Assembly (NCBI RefSeq): GCF_024502345.1
Contig: NZ_JALDNN010000001.1
Strand: one strand, 5' to 3'
Source of the DNA: Escherichia coli
GTDB taxonomy: Bacteria; Pseudomonadota; Gammaproteobacteria; Enterobacterales; Enterobacteriaceae
Length of the DNA stretch: 64,000 nucleotides
This document shows positions 4,063 through 44,043 of the stretch, one piece after another. How positions within the stretch are numbered: position 1 is the first letter of the stretch; each line of letters opens with the position of its first letter. Below the pieces are notes generated by a model that saw nothing but the letters and a program-made list of their open reading frames with translations, was not told the origin of the DNA and did not search any database. The translations under genes and the position numbers were made by a program.

Positions 4063-4815
4063 ATGGCTGTAACTAAGCTGGTTCTGGTTCGTCATGGCGA
4101 AAGTCAGTGGAACAAAGAAAACCGTTTCACCGGTTGGTACGACGTGGATCTGTCTGAGAAAGGCGTAAGCGAAGCAAAAGCAGCAGGTAAGCTGCTGAAA
4201 GAGGAAGGTTACAGCTTTGACTTTGCTTACACCTCTGTGCTGAAACGTGCTATCCATACCCTGTGGAATGTGCTGGACGAACTGGATCAGGCATGGCTGC
4301 CCGTTGAGAAATCCTGGAAACTGAACGAACGTCACTACGGTGCGTTGCAGGGTCTGAACAAAGCGGAAACTGCTGAAAAGTATGGCGACGAGCAGGTGAA
4401 ACAGTGGCGTCGTGGTTTTGCAGTGACTCCGCCGGAACTGACCAAAGATGATGAGCGTTATCCGGGTCACGATCCGCGTTACGCGAAACTAAGCGAGAAA
4501 GAGCTGCCGCTGACTGAAAGCCTGGCGCTGACTATTGACCGCGTGATCCCTTACTGGAATGAAACCATTCTGCCGCGTATGAAGAGCGGTGAGCGCGTAA
4601 TCATCGCTGCACACGGTAACTCGTTACGTGCGCTGGTGAAATATCTCGATAACATGAGCGAAGAAGAGATTCTTGAGCTGAATATCCCGACCGGCGTGCC
4701 GCTGGTTTATGAGTTTGACGAGAACTTCAAACCGCTGAAACGCTATTATCTGGGTAATGCTGACGAGATCGCGGCGAAAGCAGCAGCCGTTGCGAACCAG
4801 GGTAAAGCGAAGTAA
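4063..4815 (+). CDS. gpmA: 2,3-bisphosphoglycerate-dependent phosphoglycerate mutase
   Basis: 250 aa from [17 protein letters not shown] (histidine phosphatase RHGE motif); ORF-track start at 4048 is an upstream extension. Confidence 0.93.
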
Positions 4816-8537: not shown

Positions 8538-9581
8538 TTATCCACGTAGTGTAGCCGCAAAATCCAGCATACGATTGAGCGGCACCAGCGCCCTCTCTCG
8601 CAGCCTTTCATCAACATGAACCTCGTGATTGCTTCCTTCCTGTTCTAATGCCTCTGCGATGGCCTGAAGGCCATTCATGGCCATCCACGGACAATGCGCG
8701 CAGCTGCGGCAGGTTGCACCCTCACCCGCGGTTGGTGCTTCCAGTAACTCTTTATCTGGCACCGCCTGCTGCATTTTGTAGAAAATACCCCGATCGGTTG
8801 CCACAATAAGCCTCTGATGTGGCAATGTTTTCGCAGCAGCGATCAGTTGACTGGTGGAACCGACCGCATCCGCCATATCGACAATAGCTTGTGGTGATTC
8901 TGGATGCACCAGTATGGCAGCATCCGGGTATTCTTCTTGCAAGCGGGTTAACGCCTGAGTCTTAAATTCATCATGCACAATGCAGGCACCCTGCCAGCAT
9001 AAAATGTCTGCGCCCGTCTGTTTTTGCACGTAACGCCCCAGATGTTTGTCGGGTGCCCAGATGATTTTTTCACCCAAACTATCCAGATGATCAATAAGTT
9101 CGACGGCAATGCTTGAAGTTACCACCCAATCTGCCCGCGCTTTTACCGCAGCAGAAGTGTTGGCGTAGACGACGACAGTATGATCGGGATGGGCATCGCA
9201 AAATGCGTTAAATTCTTCAACAGGGCAGCCGAGATCCAGTGAACATTCAGCCTGAAGTGTCGGCATCAGAATTGTTTTTTCCGGACTGAGAATTTTGGCG
9301 GTTTCTCCCATAAATCTCACCCCAGCGACTAACAACGTAGAGGCGGGATGCTTTGCACCGAAGCGCGCCATTTCCAAAGAATCAGAAATGCAGCCACCGG
9401 TTTCTTCTGCCAGTTGTTGAATTTCGGGATCGGTATAGTAGTGGGCAACCATCACCGCATTACGTTCTTTTAGCAGACGTTTTATCTTCTCGCGGTAATA
9501 CGCTTTTTCATCAATGCTTAACGGCGTCGGCTTCGGGGGGAAAGGATAAATCGCCGTGTCTGGATCAAACATCACGCTCAT
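8538..9581 (-). CDS. nadA: Quinolinate synthase
   Basis: 347 aa; NadA family sequence. Confidence 0.93.
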
Positions 9582-10014: not shown

Positions 10015-10090
10015 TGGTGGGTCGTGCAGGATTCGAACCTGCGACCAATTGATTAAAAGTCAACTGCTCTACCAACTGAGCTAACGACCC
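10015..10090 (-). tRNA. lysQ: tRNA-Lys (anticodon UUU)
   Basis: 76 nt; reverse complement reads GGGTCGTTAGCTCAGTTGGTAGAGCAGTTGACTTTTAATCAATTGGTCGCAGGTTCGAATCCTGCACGACCCACCA. Confidence 0.95.
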
Positions 10091-10123
10091 CTTGCGGGAT
10101 TATGCTGCTTTAATCATTCAGGA

Positions 10124-10199
10124 TGGTGGGTCGTGCAGGATTCGAACCTGCGACCAATTGATTAAAAGTCAACTGCTCTACCAACTGAGCTAACGACCC
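10124..10199 (-). tRNA. lysZ: tRNA-Lys (UUU)
   Basis: Identical 76 nt tRNA-Lys copy. Confidence 0.95.
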
Positions 10200-10247
10200 A
10201 TACGGGTGTTACCTGAAAGATTTTTACTCGGGGCCAATCTTTAAGAT

Positions 10248-10323
10248 TGGTGGGTCGTGCAGGATTCGAACCTGCGACCAATTGATTAAAAGTCAACTGC
10301 TCTACCAACTGAGCTAACGACCC
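10248..10323 (-). tRNA. lysY: tRNA-Lys (UUU)
   Basis: Identical 76 nt tRNA-Lys copy. Confidence 0.95.
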
Positions 10324-10326
10324 GAG

Positions 10327-10402
10327 TGGTGGGTGATGACGGGATCGAACCGCCGACCCCCTCCTTGTAAGGGAGGTGCTCTCCCAGCTGAGCTAATCAC
10401 CC
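10327..10402 (-). tRNA. valZ: tRNA-Val (UAC)
   Basis: 76 nt; reverse complement reads GGGTGATTAGCTCAGCTGGGAGAGCACCTCCCTTACAAGGAGGGGGTCGGCGGTTCGATCCCGTCATCACCCACCA. Confidence 0.95.
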
Positions 10403-10453
10403 GATACTGCGCTAGATACTACAAACTACTTCCACCGAACCCACCGTAATTAG

Positions 10454-10529
10454 TGGTGGGTCGTGCAGGATTCGAACCTGCGACCAATTGATTAAAAGTC
10501 AACTGCTCTACCAACTGAGCTAACGACCC
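10454..10529 (-). tRNA. lysW: tRNA-Lys (UUU)
   Basis: Identical 76 nt tRNA-Lys copy. Confidence 0.95.
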
Positions 10530-10531
10530 GG

Positions 10532-10607
10532 TGGTGGGTGATGACGGGATCGAACCGCCGACCCCCTCCTTGTAAGGGAGGTGCTCTCCCAGCTGAGCTA
10601 ATCACCC
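10532..10607 (-). tRNA. valT: tRNA-Val (UAC)
   Basis: Identical 76 nt tRNA-Val copy. Confidence 0.95.
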
Positions 10608-10742
10608 GATACTACGCTGGATACTACAACTAACTATGTTAGTGGTGGGTCGTGCAGGATGACTCGACTTCGTCTCGCCCTTCGGGCCGTTGCTGATGCA
10701 ACGTTATCCTTCACGTTTTACTACCGCTTCCACCTTAGCGAT

Positions 10743-10818
10743 TGGTGGGTCGTGCAGGATTCGAACCTGCGACCAATTGATTAAAAGTCAACTGCTCTAC
10801 CAACTGAGCTAACGACCC
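10743..10818 (-). tRNA. lysT: tRNA-Lys (UUU)
   Basis: Identical 76 nt tRNA-Lys copy; first gene of the operon. Confidence 0.95.
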
Positions 10819-18345: not shown

Positions 18346-19914
18346 TTAGCGTGCCGGCTGAGTAGTCGTGGAAGACTGCTCAAAGTGATAGCGACCGGTT
18401 TTCAGGCTGCTTGGGCCGAGGCGTGCAAACTTGAACATTAAGAACAATTCTGCCACCAGGAACAGGGTATACAGGCCGCAAATCAGCACCATTGAGAAGA
18501 TGAGATCGCCTGCGGTCAGTGACGAGTTCGCCACAGCTGTCGGCAGCACTTCACCGATAGCCCACGGTTGGCGGCCATATTCAGCCACGAACCAGCCCGC
18601 TTCTACAGCAATCCACGGCAGCGGAATACCGTACAGCGCGGCGCGCAGCAGCCATTTTTTCTCGCCAATGCGGTTGCGGATGACACTCCAGAAAGAGAGC
18701 GCGATGATTGCCAGCAGCAGGAAGCCACACGCCACCATGATACGGAACGCGAAGTACAGCGGCGCTACACGCGGAATGGAGTCTTTGGTTGCCTGTTGAA
18801 TCTGCGCTTCAGTCGCATCAGCCACGTTTGGCGTATAGCGTTTCAGCAGCAGACCGTAACCGAGGTCTTTCTTCATGCTATTGAACTGGTCACGAACTGC
18901 CTGGTCGGTAGAACCAGAACGCAGTTGCTCGAGCAGAGAGTACGCCTTCATCCCGTTACGAATGCGTTCTTCATGCTGCACCATCAGTTCTTTCAGGCCG
19001 ATAACTGGAGTATCCACGGAACGCGTTGCAATGATGCCCAGCGCGTAAGGGATCTGGATCGCAAATTTGTTCGTCTCCTCTTCCTGATCAGGAATGCCGA
19101 ACAGAGTAAAGGCAGCAGGCGCAGGTTGCGTTTCCCACTCGGCTTCAATAGCAGCCAGTTTGGTTTTCTGCACGTCGCCCATTTCGTAACCAGATTCATC
19201 ACCCAGAACAATAACAGACAGAACGGCAGCCATACCGAAGCTGGCAGCGATAGCAAAGGAGCGTTTAGCGAAGGCGAAGTCACGACCTTTCAGCATATAC
19301 CATGCGCTGATACCGAGGATGAACATCGCGCCAGTCACATAACCAGACGCTACAGTGTGAACGAATTTCACCTGAGCAACCGGGTTAAGCACCAGCTCGG
19401 AGAAGCTCACCATCTCCATACGCATAGTTTCAAAGTTGAAATCGGACGCGATTGGGTTTTGCATCCAGCCGTTCGCAACCAGAATCCACAGTGCGGACAG
19501 GTTTGAACCGAGCGCCACCAGCCAGGTGACACACATATGCTGAACTTTACCCAGACGATCCCAACCGAAGAAGAACAGACCTACAAAGGTGGATTCGAGG
19601 AAGAAGGCCATCAGACCTTCGATTGCCAGCGGCGCACCGAAGATATCCCCTACATAGTGGGAATAGTAAGACCAGTTAGTCCCGAACTGGAACTCCATGG
19701 TCAGACCGGTAGCCACACCCAGAGCGAAGTTGATACCAAACAACTTGCCCCAGAACTTGGTCATATCTTTATAAATCTGTTTGCCGGAAAGGACGTAGAC
19801 CGTTTCCATAATGGCCAGCAGGAACGCCATACCGAGCGTCAGTGGCACAAAAAGGAAGTGGTACATCGCGGTCAAGGCAAACTGTAAGCGCGACAGTTCG
19901 ACTATATCTAACAT
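18346..19914 (-). CDS. cydA: Cytochrome bd-I ubiquinol oxidase subunit I
   Basis: 522 aa from [12 protein letters not shown]; ORF-track start is one codon upstream. Confidence 0.93.
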
Positions 19915-20251
19915 CATGACTCCTTGCTCATCGCATGAAGACTCCGAGAGTGAACCCCGTTAGAAAGGGTCACACGCATGCCCCAATACAAAATTATTTG
20001 CTCGCCTCTATCGTTGCCATTTCATCAAAAGAGGAAAAGACAATGATAAAAAAGTTACAAATATGTTAATGAATAAACCAAATTGATCCCGTAATTATAT
20101 TACGCCGCAAAATCCTTACAATAAACAGGTTTTTATTGAGCAAATTTGCATTTTTCGACAGTGATCAATTTATAGCGAAATTGTCACGATCTCACCAATT
20201 TGATCTACGACAATTTATCGTGTTTTGCAGATTTTTTTCAAGAATTAAAAA

Positions 20252-20265
20252 TTGATTTATATCAA
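20252..20265. promoter_or_regulatory. FNR-type palindrome in the long AT-rich cydA upstream region
   Basis: Perfect TTGAT-N4-ATCAA (ttgatttatatcaa) about 340 bp upstream of the cydA start codon. Confidence 0.5.
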
Positions 20266-20719
20266 AACCAACCAAATATGTTAATTATGTATAAACCATA
20301 GATCATTGGTGATTTTATTGTTAATTTATTGTGAAATATTTATGCAACACAATTATTACAATGAAAAGGTATAGATAAAAAACCAGTGTTTTATTTAACA
20401 GAACCGCCCAATCAACTTTTTATAATACCAATTGATTAGAGTAGCCAATTTGTTGCTATTTTACATAACATATTTTTATCAAAGTTAATTGATTGTTGCC
20501 TTTATGAGCACCGACCGTAAGCCCGTTATGTTATTGTTTCATTAGTAATAATCACTTAAATGTATCGATGAAACAGGTATGACTTACCGGGAGTGATTGT
20601 TTCTGAGTGAACAGAGGCCACTTTCGCCTGATAAATGAAAAATGAGCGATTTTTGCAAGTTAGTTTTTCTATAGCCGAGTACGCTCAGCGCCTCGCTTGA
20701 TTACAATGAGGTTGCTGCT

Positions 20720-21664
20720 ATGAGTCCTGATAATATCGGTTCGGCTGTCAATCGCTTCTCAGGTTGGCCATCTAATGATCCTCTAAAAACAGATGAAGAA
20801 TCAATGAAATCACCCGTGACTGTGCAAGTAATAAAGATGATTGCCGCCATCCTTGACCCACATCGGATAGTCGTTGGAATTGATACACTTTATACAACGC
20901 AGCGCGAAACATTTACCTCAGAGAGTCAACAGCTCATTGAATCAGCATTGCAAACACTTCATGTGATGAATTTAAATAATCTGGAAACAAATCGCGATGA
21001 AGAAGGTCACTATCTGGCTTTTGAATATAACGTTGACACCTCTGACAGAATAACCGTTTCTGCTTATAATGAAAAAAAGCCTGGCTGCTATGGCCAATGT
21101 CTTTTAATACAGGATGACGAAACAGACTTATTTAACCTGATAAAAATTAAAATTTTCGAAGCCAGGCATAATTATGTCGCTCAATTGATGAGCGATCCGG
21201 AATTTATGTTCAAATTCAGTTATAGCGCTCAACAAAATAGATTAGAACCTCATCTTCTGGTTCCCGCTTATTTCCCTCTAAAAACAAACGAACCGGTTAC
21301 GCAAGAGGATGTACTGTTACTTTATCGTTTCTTTAAAATGAATGATGATTTTAATAAATTAACATCAGAGGAATACATGAGTATCATGACTCCTCTGATG
21401 AAGTGTGAGCGTAGCGTCCACGACAACAACAGGTATGTGACGGGCAAAGATACCCATCTTCTGGACTATCCTCCTTCTGGTAACCAGATACATTTCCATA
21501 TTTTTCCTGACGAATCAGCAACACTAGTCCTTTATTTTTCAAACAATGACCTTGAATGTTTCGTCTTTGAAAGAGATATTCCTAGCCAGTATCGCTTTTT
21601 CAAAATGTTTACCAATCTGGCACTGGTTATAGATCAGTTAACCGAAGCCAATAAAATACTTTAA
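20720..21664 (+). CDS. Hypothetical protein, 314 aa, low-GC, no recognisable domain
   Basis: Long ORF with GAGG RBS 9 nt upstream; GC visibly lower than flanking core genes; polar Ser/Thr/Asn-rich N-terminus; absent from the K-12 arrangement. Confidence 0.6.
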   Translation: MSPDNIGSAVNRFSGWPSNDPLKTDEESMKSPVTVQVIKMIAAILDPHRIVVGIDTLYTTQRETFTSESQQLIESALQTLHVMNLNNLETNRDEEGHYLAFEYNVDTSDRITVSAYNEKKPGCYGQCLLIQDDETDLFNLIKIKIFEARHNYVAQLMSDPEFMFKFSYSAQQNRLEPHLLVPAYFPLKTNEPVTQEDVLLLYRFFKMNDDFNKLTSEEYMSIMTPLMKCERSVHDNNRYVTGKDTHLLDYPPSGNQIHFHIFPDESATLVLYFSNNDLECFVFERDIPSQYRFFKMFTNLALVIDQLTEANKIL

Positions 21665-21744
21665 TTTTCTATATATCCCTATGGCAAATATTGCTAAACA
21701 ATGCCTGGGGATTAATTTTTATTACTCACGGAAAGATTTAAATA

Positions 21745-22167
21745 ATGATACCATCTCAGATCTCTTTCAATACCCTTCCAGTCAATGCAACATACGCTTC
21801 AGAGACAACAGTTGACACACAAAAATTCTCTGACATCCTCTACTCAGCGGGGTGTTCCCTAAAGGATATGGCTTATCTGAGCAGATGTCTGGCATCAATA
21901 CACCCGACTCTCGCCAAAAACATTTATGAAACAGAAAATCTCAGCGATCAAAAATTACTGCATATTGATTGCCGTAGTACAAATGACATCAAGATAAATA
22001 TCTTTTTTGGTCAGCAACGAGAAGGATTAATTGAAATTAGTTCTGACACAGTTATTTTTTCGATACTGTCTTCATTGATTGACTCCGCCATTTCTAAATT
22101 TCAACATCAAAACCCCGTTAACGGTTCAGTTAATCCTGAACTATTGTATAAGGATTATACTGATTAA
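21745..22167 (+). CDS. Hypothetical protein, 140 aa, low-GC
   Basis: ORF 80 bp downstream of the 314 aa ORF, same strand and same composition; Ser/Thr/Ile-rich N-terminus. Confidence 0.5.
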   Translation: MIPSQISFNTLPVNATYASETTVDTQKFSDILYSAGCSLKDMAYLSRCLASIHPTLAKNIYETENLSDQKLLHIDCRSTNDIKINIFFGQQREGLIEISSDTVIFSILSSLIDSAISKFQHQNPVNGSVNPELLYKDYTD

Positions 22168-22714
22168 ACCCACCCAGTCGCGAAAAATGGCCTGCGTTAT
22201 TGCCAGACGTAATAAAACCGTTGATTAACGTTACTCATACTGGTAGCACCTTCATGTACCTCTCTTTTTTACGAAAAATCAAAAGAGCTAACTAAGGTCA
22301 TAATTCGCATGAATCATTAACCATTTGTTATTTTCAACATTATTTTTACATTAAGCAGAAATGAATTGCAGTGAAATTCGACTTAAATCTTATGAAATGC
22401 ATTTACTCATGGCTAAAACCACGTCACAAAAATGCAAATTAGAAGTAGATCACAATTATCTCAATACATTAAATCAAGTTAATTTTAAAAATTTAACATT
22501 CATGTCATTAGTTGACATAACACACTGAATTAACATGGAAATTTAAAAACACACTTTAAACAATCATTTCCCGAAAGACATTTTGAAAATAGATCAATTG
22601 CAACATTACGGTCAGATAAAGACACTCCTGTGATATTAAACCTGTGCCGTTATGAACGGCCATAAATACGACGTGTGTAACTTATTTTACTCTCTGTCTT
22701 ACAAAGGATTACCC

Positions 22715-23164
22715 ATGAAGAAAGCAACACTTGTGATTGGCGTTATTGGCGCGGACTGCCATGCAGTAGGCAATAAAGTTCTGGACCGCGTTTTTAGCAA
22801 CCACGACTTCAGAGTCATTAATCTGGGCGTAATGGTCAGCCAGGACGAATATATTGATGCTGCCATCGAAACTGGCGCTGACGCGATTATCGTCTCCTCT
22901 ATCTATGGGCATGGCGATATCGACTGTCTGGGCATGCGCGAACGCTGCATCGAGCGTGGACTGGGTGACATCCTCCTCTATGTGGGCGGTAACCTGGTGG
23001 TCGGAAAACATGACTTCGCTGACGTGGAAACCAAGTTCAAAGAGATGGGATTTGATCGCGTCTTTGCCCCAAGTCATGACTTAGAAGATGTTTGTCAGCT
23101 GATGGCCCACGATATCAATCAACGTCATGACGTTGATACTCGTATTCTTGAAGAGGCTATCTGA
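22715..23164 (+). CDS. glmS: Glutamate mutase (methylaspartate mutase) S subunit, B12-binding
   Basis: 149 aa from [22 protein letters not shown] (cobalamin-binding DxHxxG-type motif); RBS aagga upstream; ORF-track start at 22652 is an extension. Confidence 0.85.
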
Positions 23165-24552
23165 TGCAAATCGTCTCTGTCGATATTGGATCGACGTGGA
23201 CCAAAGCTGCCCTCTTCACCCGGGAGGGGGACGCGTTAACGTTGGTTAACCACGTACTGACCCCAACCACCACCCATCATCTGGCGAAGGGGTTTTTCTC
23301 CAGCCTGAACCAGGTGTTAAACGTAGATAATGCCCTCCCCCTGTTAAACAGCGGTGAGGTTGCATTGAAGTATTCCTCCTCTGCCAAAGGTGGGCTGGCG
23401 GTTGCCGCAATGGGATTGGTGCCTTCTATCACCCTGGAAACCGCGAAAGTAACCGCTCACTCTGCGGGGGCTAAAATTGCGCAATATTACGCCTACAAGC
23501 TGAACCGCCGTGATATCCAGGCACTGGAAGAAACGCAGCCCGATATTCTCTTGTTCACCGGCGGCACCGACGGCGGAGAAGAAAGCTACGGACTGAATAA
23601 CGCCCGTGTGCTGGCAGAATCCAAACTCGACTGCGCCATTATTTATGCCGGAAACCGGGATATTCAGGACGAGGTGCAGGAGATCCTCGGGCATAAAGAC
23701 CTGACCATCGTCGACAATGTTCTGCCCGATCTTGACCATCCGAACCCTTTAGCCGCACGCCAGGCTATTTGCGACATATTCCTTAAACGCATCGTTAAAG
23801 GGAAAGGGCTGGATGTCATTGTTGATAAAACAGGCGAAGAACCAATGCCGACACCATGGACGGTCTTTGAACTGGTCAAGGCAATCAGTAACGTCGATCA
23901 CAGCTGGAAAGAGTTCATGCTGATCGACATGGGCGGCGCAACCACCGATGTTTATTCCGCCGGTGCCAACACGCTCTCGCCCGACACCGTTTTACACGGC
24001 GTACCGGAACCCTTCGTAAAACGGACGGTGGAAGGCGATCTGGGAATGCGCGTCTCGGCAGTGGTGGTTGGTGAAAGTGCGAAAGAGTTAGTCAATGTGA
24101 ATTTTGCTCAGCAACCCGCACAGCTGGACGCTTTTTATCATTACCTCCGTCATCTAGTCGCTCATCCCGACTACTTACCCGCAAATGCAGAAGAGAAATA
24201 TTTCGATACCGTCCTGGCCGGACTGTGTGTGGGTTATGCCACCGAAAGACATGCGGGCACCAAAAAAGAGGTCTGCACCTGCGTCGGCAATGTCGATTTA
24301 CAGATGGGACGTGACCTGACAACCGTGCGTAAAGTCGTCGGATCCGGCGGATGGCTCTCGCGTGCCAGTCAGTTCGATATGCATCACTGGTTGAAATACC
24401 GCGAGTTAAACGACGACGGTAAACGCATTCTCTTACCGACCGAATTTGAATATTACCGCGATTCCCGGGGGCTATTACCACTGCTGGCAAACGTCGCCAG
24501 AGTCGATCCGCTGGCCGCCGCGCGCACCAGTATTCAATGCTTAACCCTATAA
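23164..24552 (+). CDS. glmL: Glutamate mutase-associated protein GlmL (MutL-like)
   Basis: 462 aa; start overlaps the glmS stop (ATGA); sits between the S and E subunits as in clostridial glutamate mutase operons. Confidence 0.8.
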   Translation: MQIVSVDIGSTWTKAALFTREGDALTLVNHVLTPTTTHHLAKGFFSSLNQVLNVDNALPLLNSGEVALKYSSSAKGGLAVAAMGLVPSITLETAKVTAHSAGAKIAQYYAYKLNRRDIQALEETQPDILLFTGGTDGGEESYGLNNARVLAESKLDCAIIYAGNRDIQDEVQEILGHKDLTIVDNVLPDLDHPNPLAARQAICDIFLKRIVKGKGLDVIVDKTGEEPMPTPWTVFELVKAISNVDHSWKEFMLIDMGGATTDVYSAGANTLSPDTVLHGVPEPFVKRTVEGDLGMRVSAVVVGESAKELVNVNFAQQPAQLDAFYHYLRHLVAHPDYLPANAEEKYFDTVLAGLCVGYATERHAGTKKEVCTCVGNVDLQMGRDLTTVRKVVGSGGWLSRASQFDMHHWLKYRELNDDGKRILLPTEFEYYRDSRGLLPLLANVARVDPLAAARTSIQCLTL

Positions 24553-24570
24553 CAATTAAGGCTGCAATCA

Positions 24571-26016
24571 ATGGAACTTCGAAATAAGAAATTAACCCAT
24601 GACGAATTCATGACCGAGCGGCAACAGGTACTGAAAACCTGGGAAACCGGCAAGGATGTTGAAAACTTTGAAGATGGCGTTAAATACCAACAAAACATTC
24701 CTGAGCATAAACGCTTCTCTCATGCCCTGCTGAAAGCAGACAAGGAAGGTAAAACCCTTAGCCAACCGCGCGCAGGTGTGGCGCTGATGGACGAACACAT
24801 CGAACTGCTGAAAACACTACAAGAAGAGTGCGATCTGCTGCCAAGCACCATCGATGCATATACCCGTCTGAATCGGTACGAAGAAGCGGCTGTAGGGATT
24901 AAAAAATCCATCGAAGCCGGAACCTCTAAACTGAACGGTTTACCGGTAGTTAACCATGGTGTCGCAGCTTGCCGTCGCCTCACCGAAACCCTGCAAAAAC
25001 CGCTACAGATCCGCCACGGCACGCCAGATGCGCGTCTGCTGGCTGAAATCTCAATGGCCAGCGGCTTTACCAGTTATGAAGGCGGTGGCATTTCCTACAA
25101 CATTCCGTATGCCAAACGTGTAACGCTGGAAAAATCGATCCGCGACTGGCAGTACTGCGACCGTTTAATGGGGATGTACGAAGAACACGGGATCCGCATC
25201 AACCGCGAACCGTTTGGCCCACTAACGGGTACGCTGATCCCGCCGTTTATCTCGCACTCTATCGCGATAATCGAAGGCTTGCTGGCGCTGGAACAGGGTG
25301 TGAAATCTATCACCGTTGGTTATGGCCAGGTCGGCAGCCTGACGCAGGATGTTGCGGCGATCCAGTCTCTGCGTGAACTTGCACACGAATACTTTCAGAG
25401 CTATGGCTATACCGACTATGAATTAAGTACCGTGTTTCACCAGTGGATGGGCGGCTTTCCGGAAGACGAATCGAAAGCGTTCGCTATTATCTCCTGGGGC
25501 GCAGCCGTCGCGGGGATGTCTGGTGCCACCAAACTCATCACCAAAAGTCCGCACGAAGCCTGGGGCATTCCGACTGCCGCTGCCAACATTCAGGGGCTGA
25601 AAGCCTCCCGCCAGATGCTCAACATGGTCAATGAGCAGAAATTCCCGCCGTGCCCTGCGGTTGAACTGGAAATTGAACTGATTAAGAGCGAGGTTCGCGC
25701 AGTACTGAATAAAGTGTTCGAACTGGGTAATGGTGATATTGCGCGCGGAACGGTGCTGGCATTTGAAGCGGGCGTACTGGATGTGCCGTTTGCGCCAGCC
25801 GCCTGCAACGCGGGCAAAATTCTTCCGGTCCGTGACAACACCGGCGCGATACGCGTACTGGAAGCCGGAGCCGTTCCATTGCCAAAAGATATTCTCGACC
25901 TCCACCACGATTACGTTGCGGAACGCGCACGCTGTGAAGGACGCCAACCGACATTCCAGATGGTTGTAGATGACATCAATGCTGTATCCCACAGTAAATT
26001 AATAGGAAGACCATAA
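24571..26016 (+). CDS. glmE: Glutamate mutase (methylaspartate mutase) E subunit
   Basis: 481 aa, typical E-subunit size and operon position. Confidence 0.85.
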   Translation: MELRNKKLTHDEFMTERQQVLKTWETGKDVENFEDGVKYQQNIPEHKRFSHALLKADKEGKTLSQPRAGVALMDEHIELLKTLQEECDLLPSTIDAYTRLNRYEEAAVGIKKSIEAGTSKLNGLPVVNHGVAACRRLTETLQKPLQIRHGTPDARLLAEISMASGFTSYEGGGISYNIPYAKRVTLEKSIRDWQYCDRLMGMYEEHGIRINREPFGPLTGTLIPPFISHSIAIIEGLLALEQGVKSITVGYGQVGSLTQDVAAIQSLRELAHEYFQSYGYTDYELSTVFHQWMGGFPEDESKAFAIISWGAAVAGMSGATKLITKSPHEAWGIPTAAANIQGLKASRQMLNMVNEQKFPPCPAVELEIELIKSEVRAVLNKVFELGNGDIARGTVLAFEAGVLDVPFAPAACNAGKILPVRDNTGAIRVLEAGAVPLPKDILDLHHDYVAERARCEGRQPTFQMVVDDINAVSHSKLIGRP

Positions 26017-29084: not shown

Positions 29085-29378
29085 GTGCACCTGATGGAGG
29101 AAAAAATGAAGAAAATAAGTTTAACCACGATGATTCTTTTGGCGCTGGTACTTGGAATGATTATCGGCGTAGTGCTCAATAACACTGTTTCACCGGAAAC
29201 AGCAAAACTCTATGCGCAAGAAATATCGATATTCACGACGATTTTCTTACGACTGATAAAAATGATTATCGCTCCGTTAGTGGTCTCTACCCTGGTGGTA
29301 GGTATTGCTAAAATGGGAGATGCCAAAGCCCTTGGTCGTATTTTTTCTAAAACACTCTTTTTATTTATTTGCGCCTCA
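29085..29378 (+). pseudogene. 5' fragment (about 98 codons) of a GltP/DctA-family dicarboxylate/amino-acid:cation symporter, truncated by IS1
   Basis: N-terminus [23 protein letters not shown]...[30 protein letters not shown] matches the conserved first TM segments of GltP-type symporters; frame runs into the IS1 left end and stops at 29405. Confidence 0.8.
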
Positions 29379-29433
29379 GGTGATGCTGCCAACTTACTGA
29401 TTTAGTGTATGATGGTGTTTTTGAGGTGCTCCA

Positions 29434-29709
29434 GTGGCTTCTGTTTCTATCAGCTGTCCCTCCTGTTCAGCTACTGACGGGGTGGTGCGTAACGGCAAAA
29501 GCACCGCCGGACATCAGCGCTATCTCTGCTCTCACTGCCGTAAAACATGGCAACTGCAGTTCACTTACACCGCTTCTCAACCCGGTACGCACCAGAAAAT
29601 CATTGATATGGCCATGAATGGCGTTGGATGCCGGGCAACCGCCCGCATTATGGGCGTTGGCCTCAACACGATTTTCCGCCATTTAAAAAACTCAGGCCGC
29701 AGTCGGTAA
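29434..29709 (+). CDS. insA: IS1 InsA protein
   Basis: 91 aa [43 protein letters not shown]... Confidence 0.95.
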
Positions 29710-30131
29710 CCTCGCGCATACAGCCGGGCAGTGACGTCATCGTCTGCGCGGAAATGGACGAACAGTGGGGATACGTCGGGGCTAAATCGCGCCAGCGCTG
29801 GCTGTTTTACGCGTATGACAGGCTCCGGAAGACGGTTGTTGCGCACGTATTCGGTGAACGCACTATGGCGACGCTGGGGCGTCTTATGAGCCTGCTGTCA
29901 CCCTTTGACGTGGTGATATGGATGACGGATGGCTGGCCGCTGTATGAATCCCGCCTGAAGGGAAAGCTGCACGTAATCAGCAAGCGATATACGCAGCGAA
30001 TTGAGCGGCATAACCTGAATCTGAGGCAGCACCTGGCACGGCTGGGACGGAAGTCGCTGTCGTTCTCAAAATCGGTGGAGCTGCATGACAAAGTCATCGG
30101 GCATTATCTGAACATAAAACACTATCAATAA
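29628..30131 (+). CDS. insB: IS1 InsB reading frame (expressed as InsAB' transposase by -1 frameshift)
   Basis: 167 aa ORF in the -1 frame overlapping the insA 3' end; classic IS1 organisation. Confidence 0.9.
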
Positions 30132-30146
30132 GTTGGAGTCATTACC

Positions 30147-30555
30147 AATCGCCGTTATTAGCTAAAGAATGAATATTAACAATAATATCGGGATGTAACT
30201 TTGTGAATTCATGTAAATTTGGGATTAACCAGTGGGTACTAAAAGTAGGATTAACGGCAAGTTCAATAACCTGAACCGTAGGCTGCCAGGTCATAATGGT
30301 ATTGGTATCGCGTTCCAGCTTATTTAATGTTTCTTTTACTATCCCCAGGTAATACTTCCCTGCATCATTAAGAAAAATGCGTTTTTTAGAGTGTGAAAAT
30401 AACGGAGTACGTAAAAATTCCTCCAGCGCACTTACTTGTCTGAATACTGCACTTTGGGTTAACGCTAACTCCTCTGCCGCTCTGGTATAACTTTCATGAC
30501 GTGCGACGACCTCAAAAGTCACCAGCAGTTCCGTTTTAGGTATTTTCCCTCGCAT
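30147..30555 (-). pseudogene. 5' fragment (about 136 codons) of a LysR-family transcriptional regulator, truncated by IS1
   Basis: N-terminal HTH typical of LysR (TFEVVARHESYTRAAEELALTQSAVFRQVSALEEFL); reading frame runs into the IS1 right end. Confidence 0.8.
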
Positions 30556-41802: not shown

Positions 41803-43086
41803 ATGGCTGATACAAAAGCAAAACTCACCCTCAACGGGGACACAGCTGTTGAACTGGATGTGCTGAAAGGCACGCTGGGTCAAGATGTTATTGATATCCG
41901 TACTCTCGGTTCAAAAGGTGTGTTCACCTTTGACCCTGGCTTCACTTCAACCGCATCCTGCGAATCTAAAATTACTTTTATTGATGGTGATGAAGGTATT
42001 TTGCTGCACCGCGGTTTCCCGATCGATCAGCTGGCGACCGATTCTAACTACCTGGAAGTTTGTTACATCCTGCTGAATGGTGAAAAACCGACTCAGGAAC
42101 AGTATGACGAATTTAAAACTACGGTGACCCGTCATACCATGATCCACGAGCAGATTACCCGTCTGTTCCACGCTTTCCGTCGCGACTCACATCCAATGGC
42201 AGTCATGTGTGGTATTACCGGCGCGCTGGCGGCGTTCTATCACGACTCGCTGGATGTTAACAATCCTCGTCATCGTGAAATTGCCGCGTTCCGCCTGCTG
42301 TCGAAAATGCCGACCATGGCAGCGATGTGTTACAAGTATTCCATTGGTCAGCCATTTGTTTATCCGCGCAACGATCTCTCCTATGCCGGTAACTTCCTGA
42401 ATATGATGTTCTCCACGCCGTGCGAACCGTATGAAGTTAATCCGATTCTGGAACGTGCTATGGACCGTATTCTGATCCTGCACGCTGACCATGAACAGAA
42501 CGCCTCTACCTCCACCGTGCGTACCGCTGGCTCTTCGGGTGCGAACCCGTTTGCCTGTATCGCAGCAGGTATTGCTTCACTGTGGGGACCTGCGCACGGG
42601 GGTGCTAACGAAGCGGCGCTGAAAATGCTGGAAGAAATTAGCTCCGTTAAACACATTCCGGAATTTGTTCGTCGTGCGAAAGATAAAAATGATTCTTTCC
42701 GCCTGATGGGCTTCGGTCACCGCGTGTACAATAATTACGACCCGCGCGCCACCGTAATGCGTGAAACTTGCCATGAAGTTCTGAAAGAGCTGGGCACCAA
42801 AGATGACCTGCTGGAAGTGGCTATGGAGCTGGAAAACATCGCGCTGAACGACCCGTACTTTATCGAGAAGAAACTGTACCCGAACGTCGATTTCTACTCT
42901 GGTATCATCCTGAAAGCGATGGGTATTCCGTCTTCCATGTTCACTGTCATTTTCGCAATGGCACGTACCGTTGGCTGGATCGCCCACTGGAGCGAAATGC
43001 ACAGTGACGGTATGAAGATTGCCCGTCCGCGTCAGCTGTATACAGGATATGAAAAACGCGACTTTAAAAGCGATATCAAGCGTTAA
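41803..43086 (+). CDS. gltA: Citrate synthase
   Basis: 427 aa ([13 protein letters not shown]...), divergent from sdhCDAB. Confidence 0.95.
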
Positions 43087-43113
43087 TGGTTGATTGCTAA
43101 GTTGTAAATATTT

Positions 43114-43146
43114 TAACCCGCCGTTCAAATGGCGGGTTAATTTTTA
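43114..43146 (+). terminator. Rho-independent terminator after gltA
   Basis: Hairpin aacccgccgttcaaatggcgggtt followed by aatttttat. Confidence 0.75.
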
Positions 43147-43476
43147 TATGCCTAAACACAAAAAATTGTAAAAATAAAATCCACTATCGGACATTCATAT
43201 ATTCTAAAAAAAAATATATCGGTATAAATTATAAACAAATCGATGATTTTTAATCATGTATCTTCCTCTCAGTTACATGAATAAACCACCAAATATAGCG
43301 CCCCCCTATAATTTCCAATACTTTATTCATCAAACATTTAATTCATACCATCAATTAATTACTTTTACATTTAATAAAATTAATAATATTTTTAAGAAAA
43401 ACTAAAAACATTCGACAATCAAATAAGATATTCTTGCACCGATATACTTTTTTCTTTTCTGTTAAAGGACTCCGTT

Positions 43477-44043
43477 ATGTTTAAAGGACAAAAAACATTG
43501 GCCGCACTGGCCGTATCTCTGTTGTTCACTGCACCTGTTTATGCGGCTGATGAAGGATGCGGTGCAATTCATTTTAAAGGTGAGGTTATTGAAGCGCCTT
43601 GTGAAATACATCAGGATGATATTGATAAAGAAGTTGAACTTGGTCAGGTGACCACCAGCCACATTAATCAGTCACATCACAGCGATGCCGTTGCTGTCGA
43701 CCTGCGCTTAGTCAACTGTGATCTGGAAAACTCCAGCAACGGTTCCGGTGGCAAGATTTCTAAAGTTGCAGTCACCTTTGATAGCTCAGCGAAAACCACC
43801 GGCGCAGATCCGATTCTCAACAACACCAGCACGGGTGAAGCCACCGGCGTCGGCGTGCGTTTATTGAATAAAGATCAAACCAATATCGTTTTAGGCACTG
43901 CTGCTCCAGACATCGACCTGGCACCGACCTCCAGCGAACAAATGCTGAATTTCTTTGCCTGGATGGAACAAATTGATCAGGCTACACCTGTAACGCCAGG
44001 CGCAGTTACAGCGAATGCTACCTACGTGCTGGATTATAAATAA
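43477..44043 (+). CDS. ybgD: Fimbrial major subunit-like protein (chaperone-usher pilus)
   Basis: 188 aa with signal peptide and fimbrial subunit features. Confidence 0.85.
   Translation: MFKGQKTLAALAVSLLFTAPVYAADEGCGAIHFKGEVIEAPCEIHQDDIDKEVELGQVTTSHINQSHHSDAVAVDLRLVNCDLENSSNGSGGKISKVAVTFDSSAKTTGADPILNNTSTGEATGVGVRLLNKDQTNIVLGTAAPDIDLAPTSSEQMLNFFAWMEQIDQATPVTPGAVTANATYVLDYK

Follow-up and report, generated by a model that had tools for sequence, protein, structure and literature searches.

We analysed a stretch of Escherichia coli DNA 64,000 nucleotides long, hereafter the window, and focused on the AT-rich intergenic leader at 22168–22714. This 547-bp gap begins after a 140-aa orphan ORF, whose stop codon ends at 22167, and runs to the ATG of glmS (methylaspartate mutase S) at 22715. 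glmS itself occupies 22715–23164 on the plus strand, is the first gene of a glmS-glmL-glmE-mal-atuA-like-DUF4387 operon and encodes a B12-binding protein. The gene name given in an earlier note on this DNA holds for subunit S of methylaspartate/glutamate mutase (PF02310) but not for glucosamine-6-phosphate synthase. The start at 22715, together with its AGAGGA/AAGGA ribosome-binding site, is kept in ~50 loci of other genera; an in-frame ATG upstream of it, at 22652, is not conserved in other-genus loci.

The gap has a GC content of 32.5%, compared with 51.2% for the whole 64-kb window. Of all 547-bp segments in the 64 kb, only 1.4% are equally AT-rich, the others lying in the cydA upstream region and at ~42.9 kb. 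The longest reading frame within the gap, a 55-aa ORF at 22361–22528, was rejected as a gene: it has no family match, is broken in Escherichia sp. MOD1-EC7003 and is truncated in E. whittamii. We found no conservation of the small ORFs of the gap. The region is carried by 1,135 of 5,426 complete E. coli genomes at 89–100% identity, and no annotated feature falls in the gap under the 30 representative matches listed for these 1,135 genomes. The earlier description of about 550 bp of AT-rich, non-coding leader before glmS was therefore accurate, with the figures now at 547 bp, 32.5% GC and no conserved reading frame.

The surrounding segment, 20000–24600, is 99.5% identical to E. coli strains F9792 and O169:H41. 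RefSeq gene order in F9792, O169:H41 and O157:H7 starts with cydA on the minus strand and two hypothetical genes (314 and 140 aa), continues through glmS, glmL, glmE, methylaspartate ammonia-lyase, an AtuA-like gene and a DUF4387 gene, and ends with a dicarboxylate/amino-acid symporter, a class I fumarase (FumD, mesaconase), cobO and a convergent LysR-family regulator gene. The set corresponds to Kronen & Berg's 'glutamate fermentation' island, whose pathway is anaerobic and B12-dependent and whose enzymes have been characterised (PMC4682846). About one-fifth of complete E. coli genomes carry it (the 1,135 of 5,426 above), O157:H7 and O55:H7 included, and it is also present in many Citrobacter, Klebsiella, Salmonella, Enterobacter and Yersinia.

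The island in this strain is incomplete. An IS1 element of 768 bp (29379–30146, plus strand) sits at the site of a 3,910-bp deletion. Relative to F9792, the symporter gene has lost 1,008 bp and the regulator gene ~500 bp from their 3' ends, and fumD and cobO are gone altogether. What is left of the regulator gene (30142–30555, minus strand) encodes ~136 native residues, covering the DNA-binding domain and the start of the effector-binding domain. Strains with an intact copy include EDL933/Sakai, K. oxytoca and C. amalonaticus; the full-length protein is WP_001214266/WP_024171455. Just one of the 5,426 genomes, 14EC033, shares this IS1-deletion layout.

Ancestry of the gap

The gap proved to be a composite of old and inserted DNA. 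In Klebsiella, Citrobacter, Salmonella arizonae, E. whittamii and P. vulneris, cydA and glmS are divergent over 1.2–1.4 kb. In E. coli and its closest relatives a low-GC two-gene module is inserted in this cydA-glmS gap at ~20561–22308; homology to the E. whittamii gap ends at 20560 and restarts at 22309. The first ~140 bp of the gap (22168–22308) are thus the 3' flank of the insertion and lie outside the ancestral glmS upstream region, 22309–22714. This flank is the least conserved segment, at 78–96% identity within Escherichia. A search for insertion scars flanking the low-GC module returned only short matches, as chance would give. The view that the gap divides a low-GC module from a normal-GC glm operon is supported.

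The ancestral part begins with weakly constrained AT-rich DNA (22309–22554) that is 86–99% identical within Escherichia and unalignable elsewhere except for one short half-site. In all lineages the 300 bp before glmS have a GC content of 25–42%, which makes AT-richness an old trait of the promoter region. The AT-rich upstream DNA at 22309–22554 may be a target of H-NS. Control of the gap by H-NS, raised in the earlier note, is plausible because the DNA is so AT-rich and transcriptionally silent.

A near-invariant box upstream of glmS

We compared the upstream DNA of glmS loci from 80 species. A single block of the gap survives between genera, and constraint is limited to the last ~160 bp. Within Escherichia, 22555–22714 remains 97.5–100% identical in alleles whose upstream part falls to 78–91%. 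Of 35 distinct upstream sequences from Enterobacteriaceae, 30 contain exactly the same 18-bp core, TTGAAAATAGATCAATTG (22583–22600); these 30 are drawn from Escherichia, Citrobacter, Salmonella, Enterobacter, Lelliottia, Pluralibacter, Raoultella, Pseudescherichia and K. spallanzanii. The remaining five sequences, from other Klebsiella and Buttiauxella, differ at base 1 only. Information content per column is 1.97 bits in the core compared with 0.4–1.3 bits in the flanks, which have diverged past alignment between genera. The core lies 108–136 bp upstream of the ATG throughout the Enterobacteriaceae set, except in one C. amalonaticus locus with an insertion.

The core belongs to a 29-bp candidate operator box, GAAAGACATTTTGAAAATAGATCAATTGC (22573–22601, plus strand). 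Within it, a TGA-N7-TCA dyad (T-N11-A) at 22584–22596 is centred at ~−43. A position matrix built from the conserved sites scored 42 at 22573–22601, and its next best score over the whole window on both strands (128 kb) was 3.4. T-N11-A is by itself a low-information, low-specificity motif. The spacer of the dyad is invariant in the E. coli group.

More distant relatives carry diverged forms. A CTGAnAATAnATCA(A/T)TTG form lies 200–300 bp before the ATG in Yersinia, Budvicia and two further Enterobacteriaceae. A matrix scan located box variants in Hafnia and Morganella, TCAAGAACTCCTGACGAGATATCAATTGT and GCAAGATATCCTTACTTTATATCAATTGT, respectively, each with the same layout of −35 element, 17 bp and CACATT; five Morganella loci with differing flanks share their variant exactly. 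Both genera retain the outer blocks CAAGAnnTCCT and ATATCAATTGT. The E. coli group, Yersinia, Budvicia and Hafnia have retained the TGA-N7-TCA dyad; Yokenella (TCA...TCA) and Morganella have lost it. A search allowing three mismatches had suggested that the box is absent wherever the LysR-type regulator is absent; the diverged Hafnia and Morganella variants found by the matrix scan overturned that rule.

Upstream of the box, a TTGAT half-site occurs at a fixed −58 from it in ~12 species. The corresponding (T/C)TGAT position in E. coli (22525–22538, plus strand) is degenerate (CTGAATTAACATGG). The earlier note had seen only half-site-like matches in this gap. It recognised no convincing full consensus, and indeed no FNR, CRP or ArcA consensus site is present, but it missed the near-invariant box at 22583–22600.

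A weak predicted promoter abutting the box

The box runs into a predicted sigma-70 promoter. Its −35 element, TTGCAA (22598–22603, plus strand; 4/6), overlaps the 3' end of the box, and its −10 element, GACACT (22621–22626, plus strand), follows 17 bp later with three of six consensus bases (A2, A4 and T6). The two hexamers together score 7/12, and their 17-bp spacing falls within the 16–18 bp of sigma-70 promoters. The same arrangement of TTG, 17 bp and an nA...T hexamer recurs in E. coli, Citrobacter, Enterobacter, Yersinia, Budvicia, Yokenella, Hafnia and Morganella. The −35-like element reads TTG(C/T)nn across lineages, with TTG kept in every one. The −10-like hexamer keeps A2 and T6 in all lineages and A4 in nearly all: it is GACACT in E. 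coli, GAAACT in Citrobacter, CACACT in Enterobacter, CACATT in Yersinia, Budvicia, Hafnia and Morganella, and CATATT in Yokenella, while Hs463 (CATCGT) and L092 (GATTTT) lack A4.

A consensus scan with a threshold of 9/12 missed this 7/12 promoter. The scan returned four promoter-like sites in place of the 4.6 expected by chance, none of them conserved. An alternative −10 element, TGaTATTAA at 22631–22639, is seen in E. coli only.

From these sequence comparisons we predict that GACACT is the −10 element and that transcription starts near A22633. The resulting 5' untranslated region would be ~82 nt long (22633–22714, plus strand), with the AAGGA ribosome-binding site at 22704–22708. A promoter this weak fits dependence on an activator. 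We consider it highly likely that 22573–22633 holds a conserved, factor-dependent promoter. The proposal that the gap is the seat of the operon promoter and of a regulatory site gains support from the conserved box and the predicted promoter geometry.

We also weighed the reading in which glmS has no promoter of its own and is reached by read-through from the low-GC genes, leaving the gap a mere spacer. The upstream genes are co-directional, and the consensus scan predicted no terminator-like site in the gap, between them and glmS, as read-through would allow. Against this, the low-GC module is an insertion, and other genera have glmS in divergent orientation to cydA or a LysR gene. Most genera have no co-directional gene upstream of glmS (it is divergent from cydA), so the operon needs its own promoter there, and the promoter and box are kept across genera. 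Published transcriptomes point the same way. Across 11 conditions in EDL933, glmS (Z0895) had an RPKM of 0–1 and Z0892–Z0894 of 0–3, and Z0896 was among 144 genes without any read (PMC4048457). In the old annotation Z0896 is a hypothetical gene beside glmS on its upstream side; we do not equate it with the 140-aa ORF. This silence argues against read-through from upstream, for those conditions only. Taken together, we regard the read-through reading as highly improbable and retain the promoter at 22573–22633.

The leader RNA

A B12-dependent enzyme behind a long gap raises the prospect of RNA-level control, by a cobalamin or other riboswitch, a leader peptide or an attenuator in a long transcribed leader. 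Rfam searches of 19800–23200 at E ≤ 10 yielded only chance snoRNA-like matches, and at the gathering score nothing was found upstream of glmS in seven cluster loci. The same Rfam search did detect a cobalamin riboswitch (RF00174, 104.6 bits) upstream of cbiA in the Enterobacter cluster locus, which served as a positive control. The earlier note's failure to recognise a cobalamin riboswitch is borne out.

Folding predictions were equally unremarkable. A consensus fold of the leader from 14 species reached −0.82 kcal/mol with three pairs and no covariation, and the E. coli leader folded no better than shuffled sequence (z = −0.77). A small hairpin at 22646–22660 occurs in Escherichia only; it is the one structural feature that could be counted in favour of RNA-level control. 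The lack of a terminator-like site, the unconserved small ORFs and the position of the conserved block, upstream of the −10 element, all weigh against such control, for which we see next to no likelihood. Protein binding at the box, upstream of the transcript, remains the preferred reading.

Scans for FNR, ArcA and CRP sites

FNR, ArcA and CRP are natural candidates for an anaerobic, B12-dependent pathway (PMC4682846), and the earlier note expected control by factors of this kind. We found no FNR consensus at up to two mismatches in 22168–22714 and no ArcA box (GTTAATTAAATGTTA) at up to three mismatches in the gap. The same scans recovered a perfect FNR site at 20252–20265 in the cydA region, two ArcA matches in the cydA region and others in sdh/gltA. 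For CRP, a single match with two mismatches lies in the gap, at 22439–22454, ~190 bp upstream of the predicted start; window-wide, 19 such matches were found compared with 28 expected by chance. The example offered in the earlier note, tgtgatattaaacctgtg (22629–22646), overlaps the predicted transcription start, and its TGTGA is specific to Escherichia.

Some support for FNR comes from other species. In C. youngae and Hs463, the TTGAT half-site found 58 bp upstream of the box in ~12 species matches the FNR consensus at 9/10; in E. coli no 14-mer reaches 7/10. Best FNR scores of at least 8/10 were obtained for 43% of sequences across species compared with 21.5% of shuffled ones, but this enrichment is slight and the second half-site is not conserved. 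The spacing in the box itself, TTGA-N7-TCAA, is one base beyond the N6 of the FNR/CRP family. On this evidence, control mainly by FNR, ArcA or CRP at sites in the gap is improbable, and none of the three expected controls found support in E. coli. The earlier note's overall picture is therefore sound as to an operon promoter and control region lacking a riboswitch, and not as to the specific regulators FNR, CRP and ArcA.

The neighbouring cydAB operon offers a comparison. cydAB is controlled by FNR, ArcA and H-NS. Its regulatory region is, like the gap, long and very AT-rich, and in most genera the two form one 1.2–1.4-kb intergenic region. The cydA side has a perfect FNR site and ArcA-like sites; the glmS side has none.

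We also considered ArgR, Lrp and IHF and rejected them; judged by eye against their consensus sequences, they matched poorly or the match did not hold from one lineage to the next.

The island's LysR-type regulator as probable reader of the box

The geometry of the box resembles that of LysR-type operators, in which a T-N11-A dyad adjoins or overlies the −35 element (PMC3382589). Our candidate operator would span ~−60 to −32 relative to the predicted start, inside the range of ~−80 to −20 typical of such operators, and overlap the predicted −35 element. Its 4-bp half-sites, 7-bp spacer, T-N11-A dyad and position adjoining the predicted −35 element together point to a LysR-type operator (PMC3382589). 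Its nearest counterparts are promoters activated by LysR-type regulators from T-N11-A operators with regulatory and activation sites (the 'sliding dimer' model), the lys box of PltR being an example (PMC3382589). Shared with these systems are the 4-bp half-sites, the 7-bp spacer and an operator that abuts or overlaps weak −35 and −10 elements. As in other LysR-type systems, the regulator gene is linked to its presumed target, a catabolic operon, in divergent orientation in some lineages, and nothing but the candidate operator is conserved between gaps that have otherwise diverged.

The regulator gene is linked to the cluster in nine lineages examined. It lies at the cluster end in E. coli, Citrobacter, Enterobacter and P. 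vulneris, and in the E. coli group it is convergent and 10 kb from the box. Yersinia has a 63%-identical ortholog upstream of the cluster, and Hs463 and B14 have orthologs on the glmS contig. In Aromatoleum and Rhodoferax, homologs with 42–45% identity are directly divergent from glmS. Two lineages are especially informative. In assembly GCA_902840985.1, 279 bp separate glmS from a divergent ortholog of 55% identity, and this short gap holds a box variant in the glmS orientation with a matrix score of 19.5, the next best in the locus being 3.5. In Yokenella, btuCD/btuB/btuF-like genes precede glmS, and the ortholog (56%) is transcribed divergently from them. A 29-mer there, TCAAGTTGTCTTCA..TTTT.TCAATTGC, occurs twice with 26 of 29 bases identical, once in the regulator-side gap and once before glmS, and each copy is followed by TTGCnn and then a −10-like element.

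The regulator and the box may also have changed together. Regulators with the recognition helix LALTQSAVFRQ occur in lineages with TGAnAATAnATCA, and the Yokenella-type helix, LSLTQGALFRQ, accompanies a changed left half of the box. We take this pattern as a hint of helix-box co-variation.

By family, the truncated regulator finds its best NCBIfam match in the GcvA subfamily (residues 3–132, 114.5 bits, cut-off 288). Since the score falls far under the 288-bit cut-off, the regulator is not GcvA itself. Its layout is that of GcvA/DsdC/AmpR-like proteins, with a DNA-binding domain at the N terminus and a LysR substrate-binding domain. The GcvA site contains CTAAT and is unlike the box.

Several features set the system apart from typical LysR-type ones. 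The regulator gene of the E. coli group is convergent, 10 kb off and at the far end of the island, and a search of its own promoter in that group found no second box; the Yersinia lysR-cobA gap likewise yielded none. BenM and CatM bind ATAC-N7-GTAT sites centred near −64 and −43. The best-conserved dyad here is the promoter-proximal one (~−43), not a −65 site. In two lineages, moreover, a box variant persists although no regulator is linked to it: we found no LysR gene within 10 kb of the Hafnia and Morganella clusters, and no Hafnia- or Morganella-named ortholog among regulator homologs down to 41% identity.

The persistence of the box variant in Hafnia and Morganella without a nearby LysR gene implies that its outer blocks serve something besides this regulator. 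These blocks, CAAGA..TCCT and ATCAATTG, could be contacted by RNA polymerase itself, by a paralog or by a second factor. The central TGAnAATAn appears, from the alignments, to track the regulator. With the centre tracking the regulator and the outer blocks kept in its absence, we put only a modest preference on the box being the operator of the island's LysR-type regulator, and we treat it as probable on that footing.

The chief competitor accepts the promoter assignment and gives the box to another protein, or calls for a second one, with the LysR protein acting elsewhere or as a modulator. Candidates are global or nucleoid factors found throughout the Enterobacterales (IHF-like proteins, Fis, or a regulator of anaerobic or nitrogen metabolism) and a dedicated regulator that is unlinked to the cluster. 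Hafnia and Morganella, which keep the outer blocks and the −35/−10 geometry with no LysR gene nearby, speak for this possibility, and the invariant dyad spacer of the E. coli group suggests that the constraints of two or more readers overlap there. Read by eye, ATCAA-N4-TT is partly like the IHF core, and TTGA...TCAA resembles FNR half-sites. The IHF match fails at the 'TTR' position in every lineage, however, and the N7 spacing is again one base longer than the N6 of the FNR/CRP family. Lineage differences in the left and central parts of the box go with the recognition helix of the regulator, which would not be expected of a global factor. In two lineages, box copies lie beside the regulator gene. 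We therefore judge another reader unlikely, though clearly more credible than control by FNR, ArcA or CRP at sites in the gap, and continue to favour the LysR-type regulator.

A proposed LysR-activated promoter

Our best explanation has a probability of roughly 0.6 as a whole: a weak sigma-70 promoter activated by a LysR-type regulator. The last ~160 bp of the gap would be the promoter region of the glutamate-mutase operon, with TTGCAA-17 bp-GACACT probably too weak to fire alone. A protein on the 29-bp box at 22573–22601 (~−60 to −32) would switch the promoter on, and its likeliest identity is the island's LysR-type regulator of the GcvA subfamily; we infer both the activation and the identity of the binder. 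The regulator would sit as a tetramer on the T-N11-A operator and touch RNA polymerase when a co-inducer is present. As co-inducer we would guess a pathway metabolite, for example glutamate, methylaspartate or mesaconate. The upstream ~390 bp would be weakly constrained AT-rich DNA, part of it insertion flank, that may add silencing by H-NS. That the box is read by a LysR-type protein responsive to a pathway metabolite, one that in certain lineages (Yokenella) also drives B12-uptake genes, seems to us slightly favoured.

The predicted promoter and its probable operator are an ordinary kind of element, undescribed in the literature we searched, where the regulation of the operon went no further than the label 'putative LTTR' in a figure legend. 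Clostridial mal/glm clusters share the glmS, glmL/mutL, glmE, mal and mesaconase genes and a dedicated putative regulator, which in those glutamate-fermentation clusters is of the GntR family (Kronen & Berg 2015, Fig. 4). The enterobacterial cluster, unlike the clostridial one, has a LysR-type rather than a GntR regulator, contains fumD, cobO and the symporter gene, and lacks citramalate lyase.

Consequences for the island in E. coli

In O157:H7, no condition was found under which the genes are expressed, and there was no methylaspartate ammonia-lyase activity (PMC4682846). The silence of the operon in EDL933 is compatible with tight control, and does not imply that the promoter is active. If the regulator is an activator, the promoter has probably been orphaned and left silent in the strain analysed here, where IS1 has removed the effector-binding half of the regulator. 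The intact-looking glm-mal genes would then probably be a silent remnant. Strains like this one hold a lesson for annotation, IS1 having removed part of the regulator gene, fumD, cobO and part of the transporter gene. If our reading is true, the promoter, the 29-bp operator and the candidate regulator would together provide a handle on a cryptic pathway in E. coli O157:H7.

Sequence context of the cydA-glmS gap

We used the sites upstream of cydA as internal positive controls for our FNR and ArcA scans. This region holds a perfect FNR consensus, TTGATTTATATCAA, at 20252-20265 and two ArcA-like boxes at 20320-20334 and 20484-20498, in agreement with what is known of how cydAB is controlled. Two ArcA-like matches were also found at 43332-43379, within ~42921-43700, which, after 22168-22714 and the cydA upstream region, is the third part of the window to be this AT-rich.

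Between cydA and glmS, the ancestral gap has received a two-gene orphan module of low GC content (26-42%), spanning ~20561-22308 with plus-strand ORFs at 20720-21664 and 21745-22167. Outside E. coli the module occurs only in very close relatives, and the copy in Escherichia sp. MOD1-EC7003 has partly decayed. No significant match to it was returned by Pfam, NCBIfam or PADLOC, and no insertion scars were recognisable around it. In RNA-seq of the O157 strain EDL933, old-annotation gene tags neighbouring the module are nearly or fully silent (PMC4048457). In NZ_CP024273.1 and NZ_CP008957.1 a single locus tag is absent from the series between glmS and the gene for the 140-aa product (RS03675 and RS03955 are missing), a hint that a feature was formerly called in the equivalent of 22168-22714 and later withdrawn.

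Elements flanking the candidate operator

Upstream of the box, our 29-bp candidate operator beside the predicted glmS promoter, lies a conserved (T/C)TGAT half-site (22525-22538, with its counterpart at the same alignment position in other genera) that can be read as the ATCAA of the box in inverted form. Its distance from the box is 58 bp for the E. coli group and 79 bp for the Yersinia group, an offset of 21 bp, or two helical turns. In some species the half-site looks like an FNR site; in E. coli itself it is degenerate. Downstream, the predicted leader contains a 6-bp hairpin, GCCGTT-ATG-AACGGC (22646-22660), which is kept in Escherichia only and is followed by no T-run. An in-frame ATG in its loop leads the mechanical ORF list to lengthen glmS to 170 aa.

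Searching for the pattern TGA-N7-TCAATTG yielded five further matches, all TGACTTTTAATCAATTG on the minus strand at 10046-10774, a region downstream of cpoB that holds the tRNA-Lys/Val cluster. This sequence is presumably the tRNA-Lys anticodon arm, and its likeness to the box pattern is probably due to chance.

The regulator gene and cluster organization across genera

The LysR-type regulator gene of the island, presumed to encode the reader of the box, is truncated here by an IS1-associated deletion of 3910 bp that removed the 3' part of the symporter gene, fumD, cobO and the 3' half of the regulator gene. IS1 (29379-30146) now separates a symporter 5' remnant (29085-29378) from a LysR 5' remnant (30147-30555), a layout that, among 5426 complete E. 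coli genomes, recurs in 14EC033 only. The regulator gene adjoins sucD in this strain and in O157; in strain F9792, mngRAB and rtcB intervene.

In Enterobacter, Morganella and Hafnia (L085, L086/L090), the glm cluster is directly adjoined by a cbi/cob cobalamin biosynthesis operon rather than by cydA. Morganella and Hafnia are also without fumD, cobO and the regulator gene; these three seem to move jointly as a module.

The Yokenella locus (L088) carries the box twice, at 4583-4611 and 9449-9477. One of the copies precedes glmS; the other presumably drives the btuCD/btuB/btuF-like B12-uptake genes, which are divergent from the regulator gene. The duplication suggests co-regulation of glutamate mutase and B12 uptake in the Yokenella lineage.
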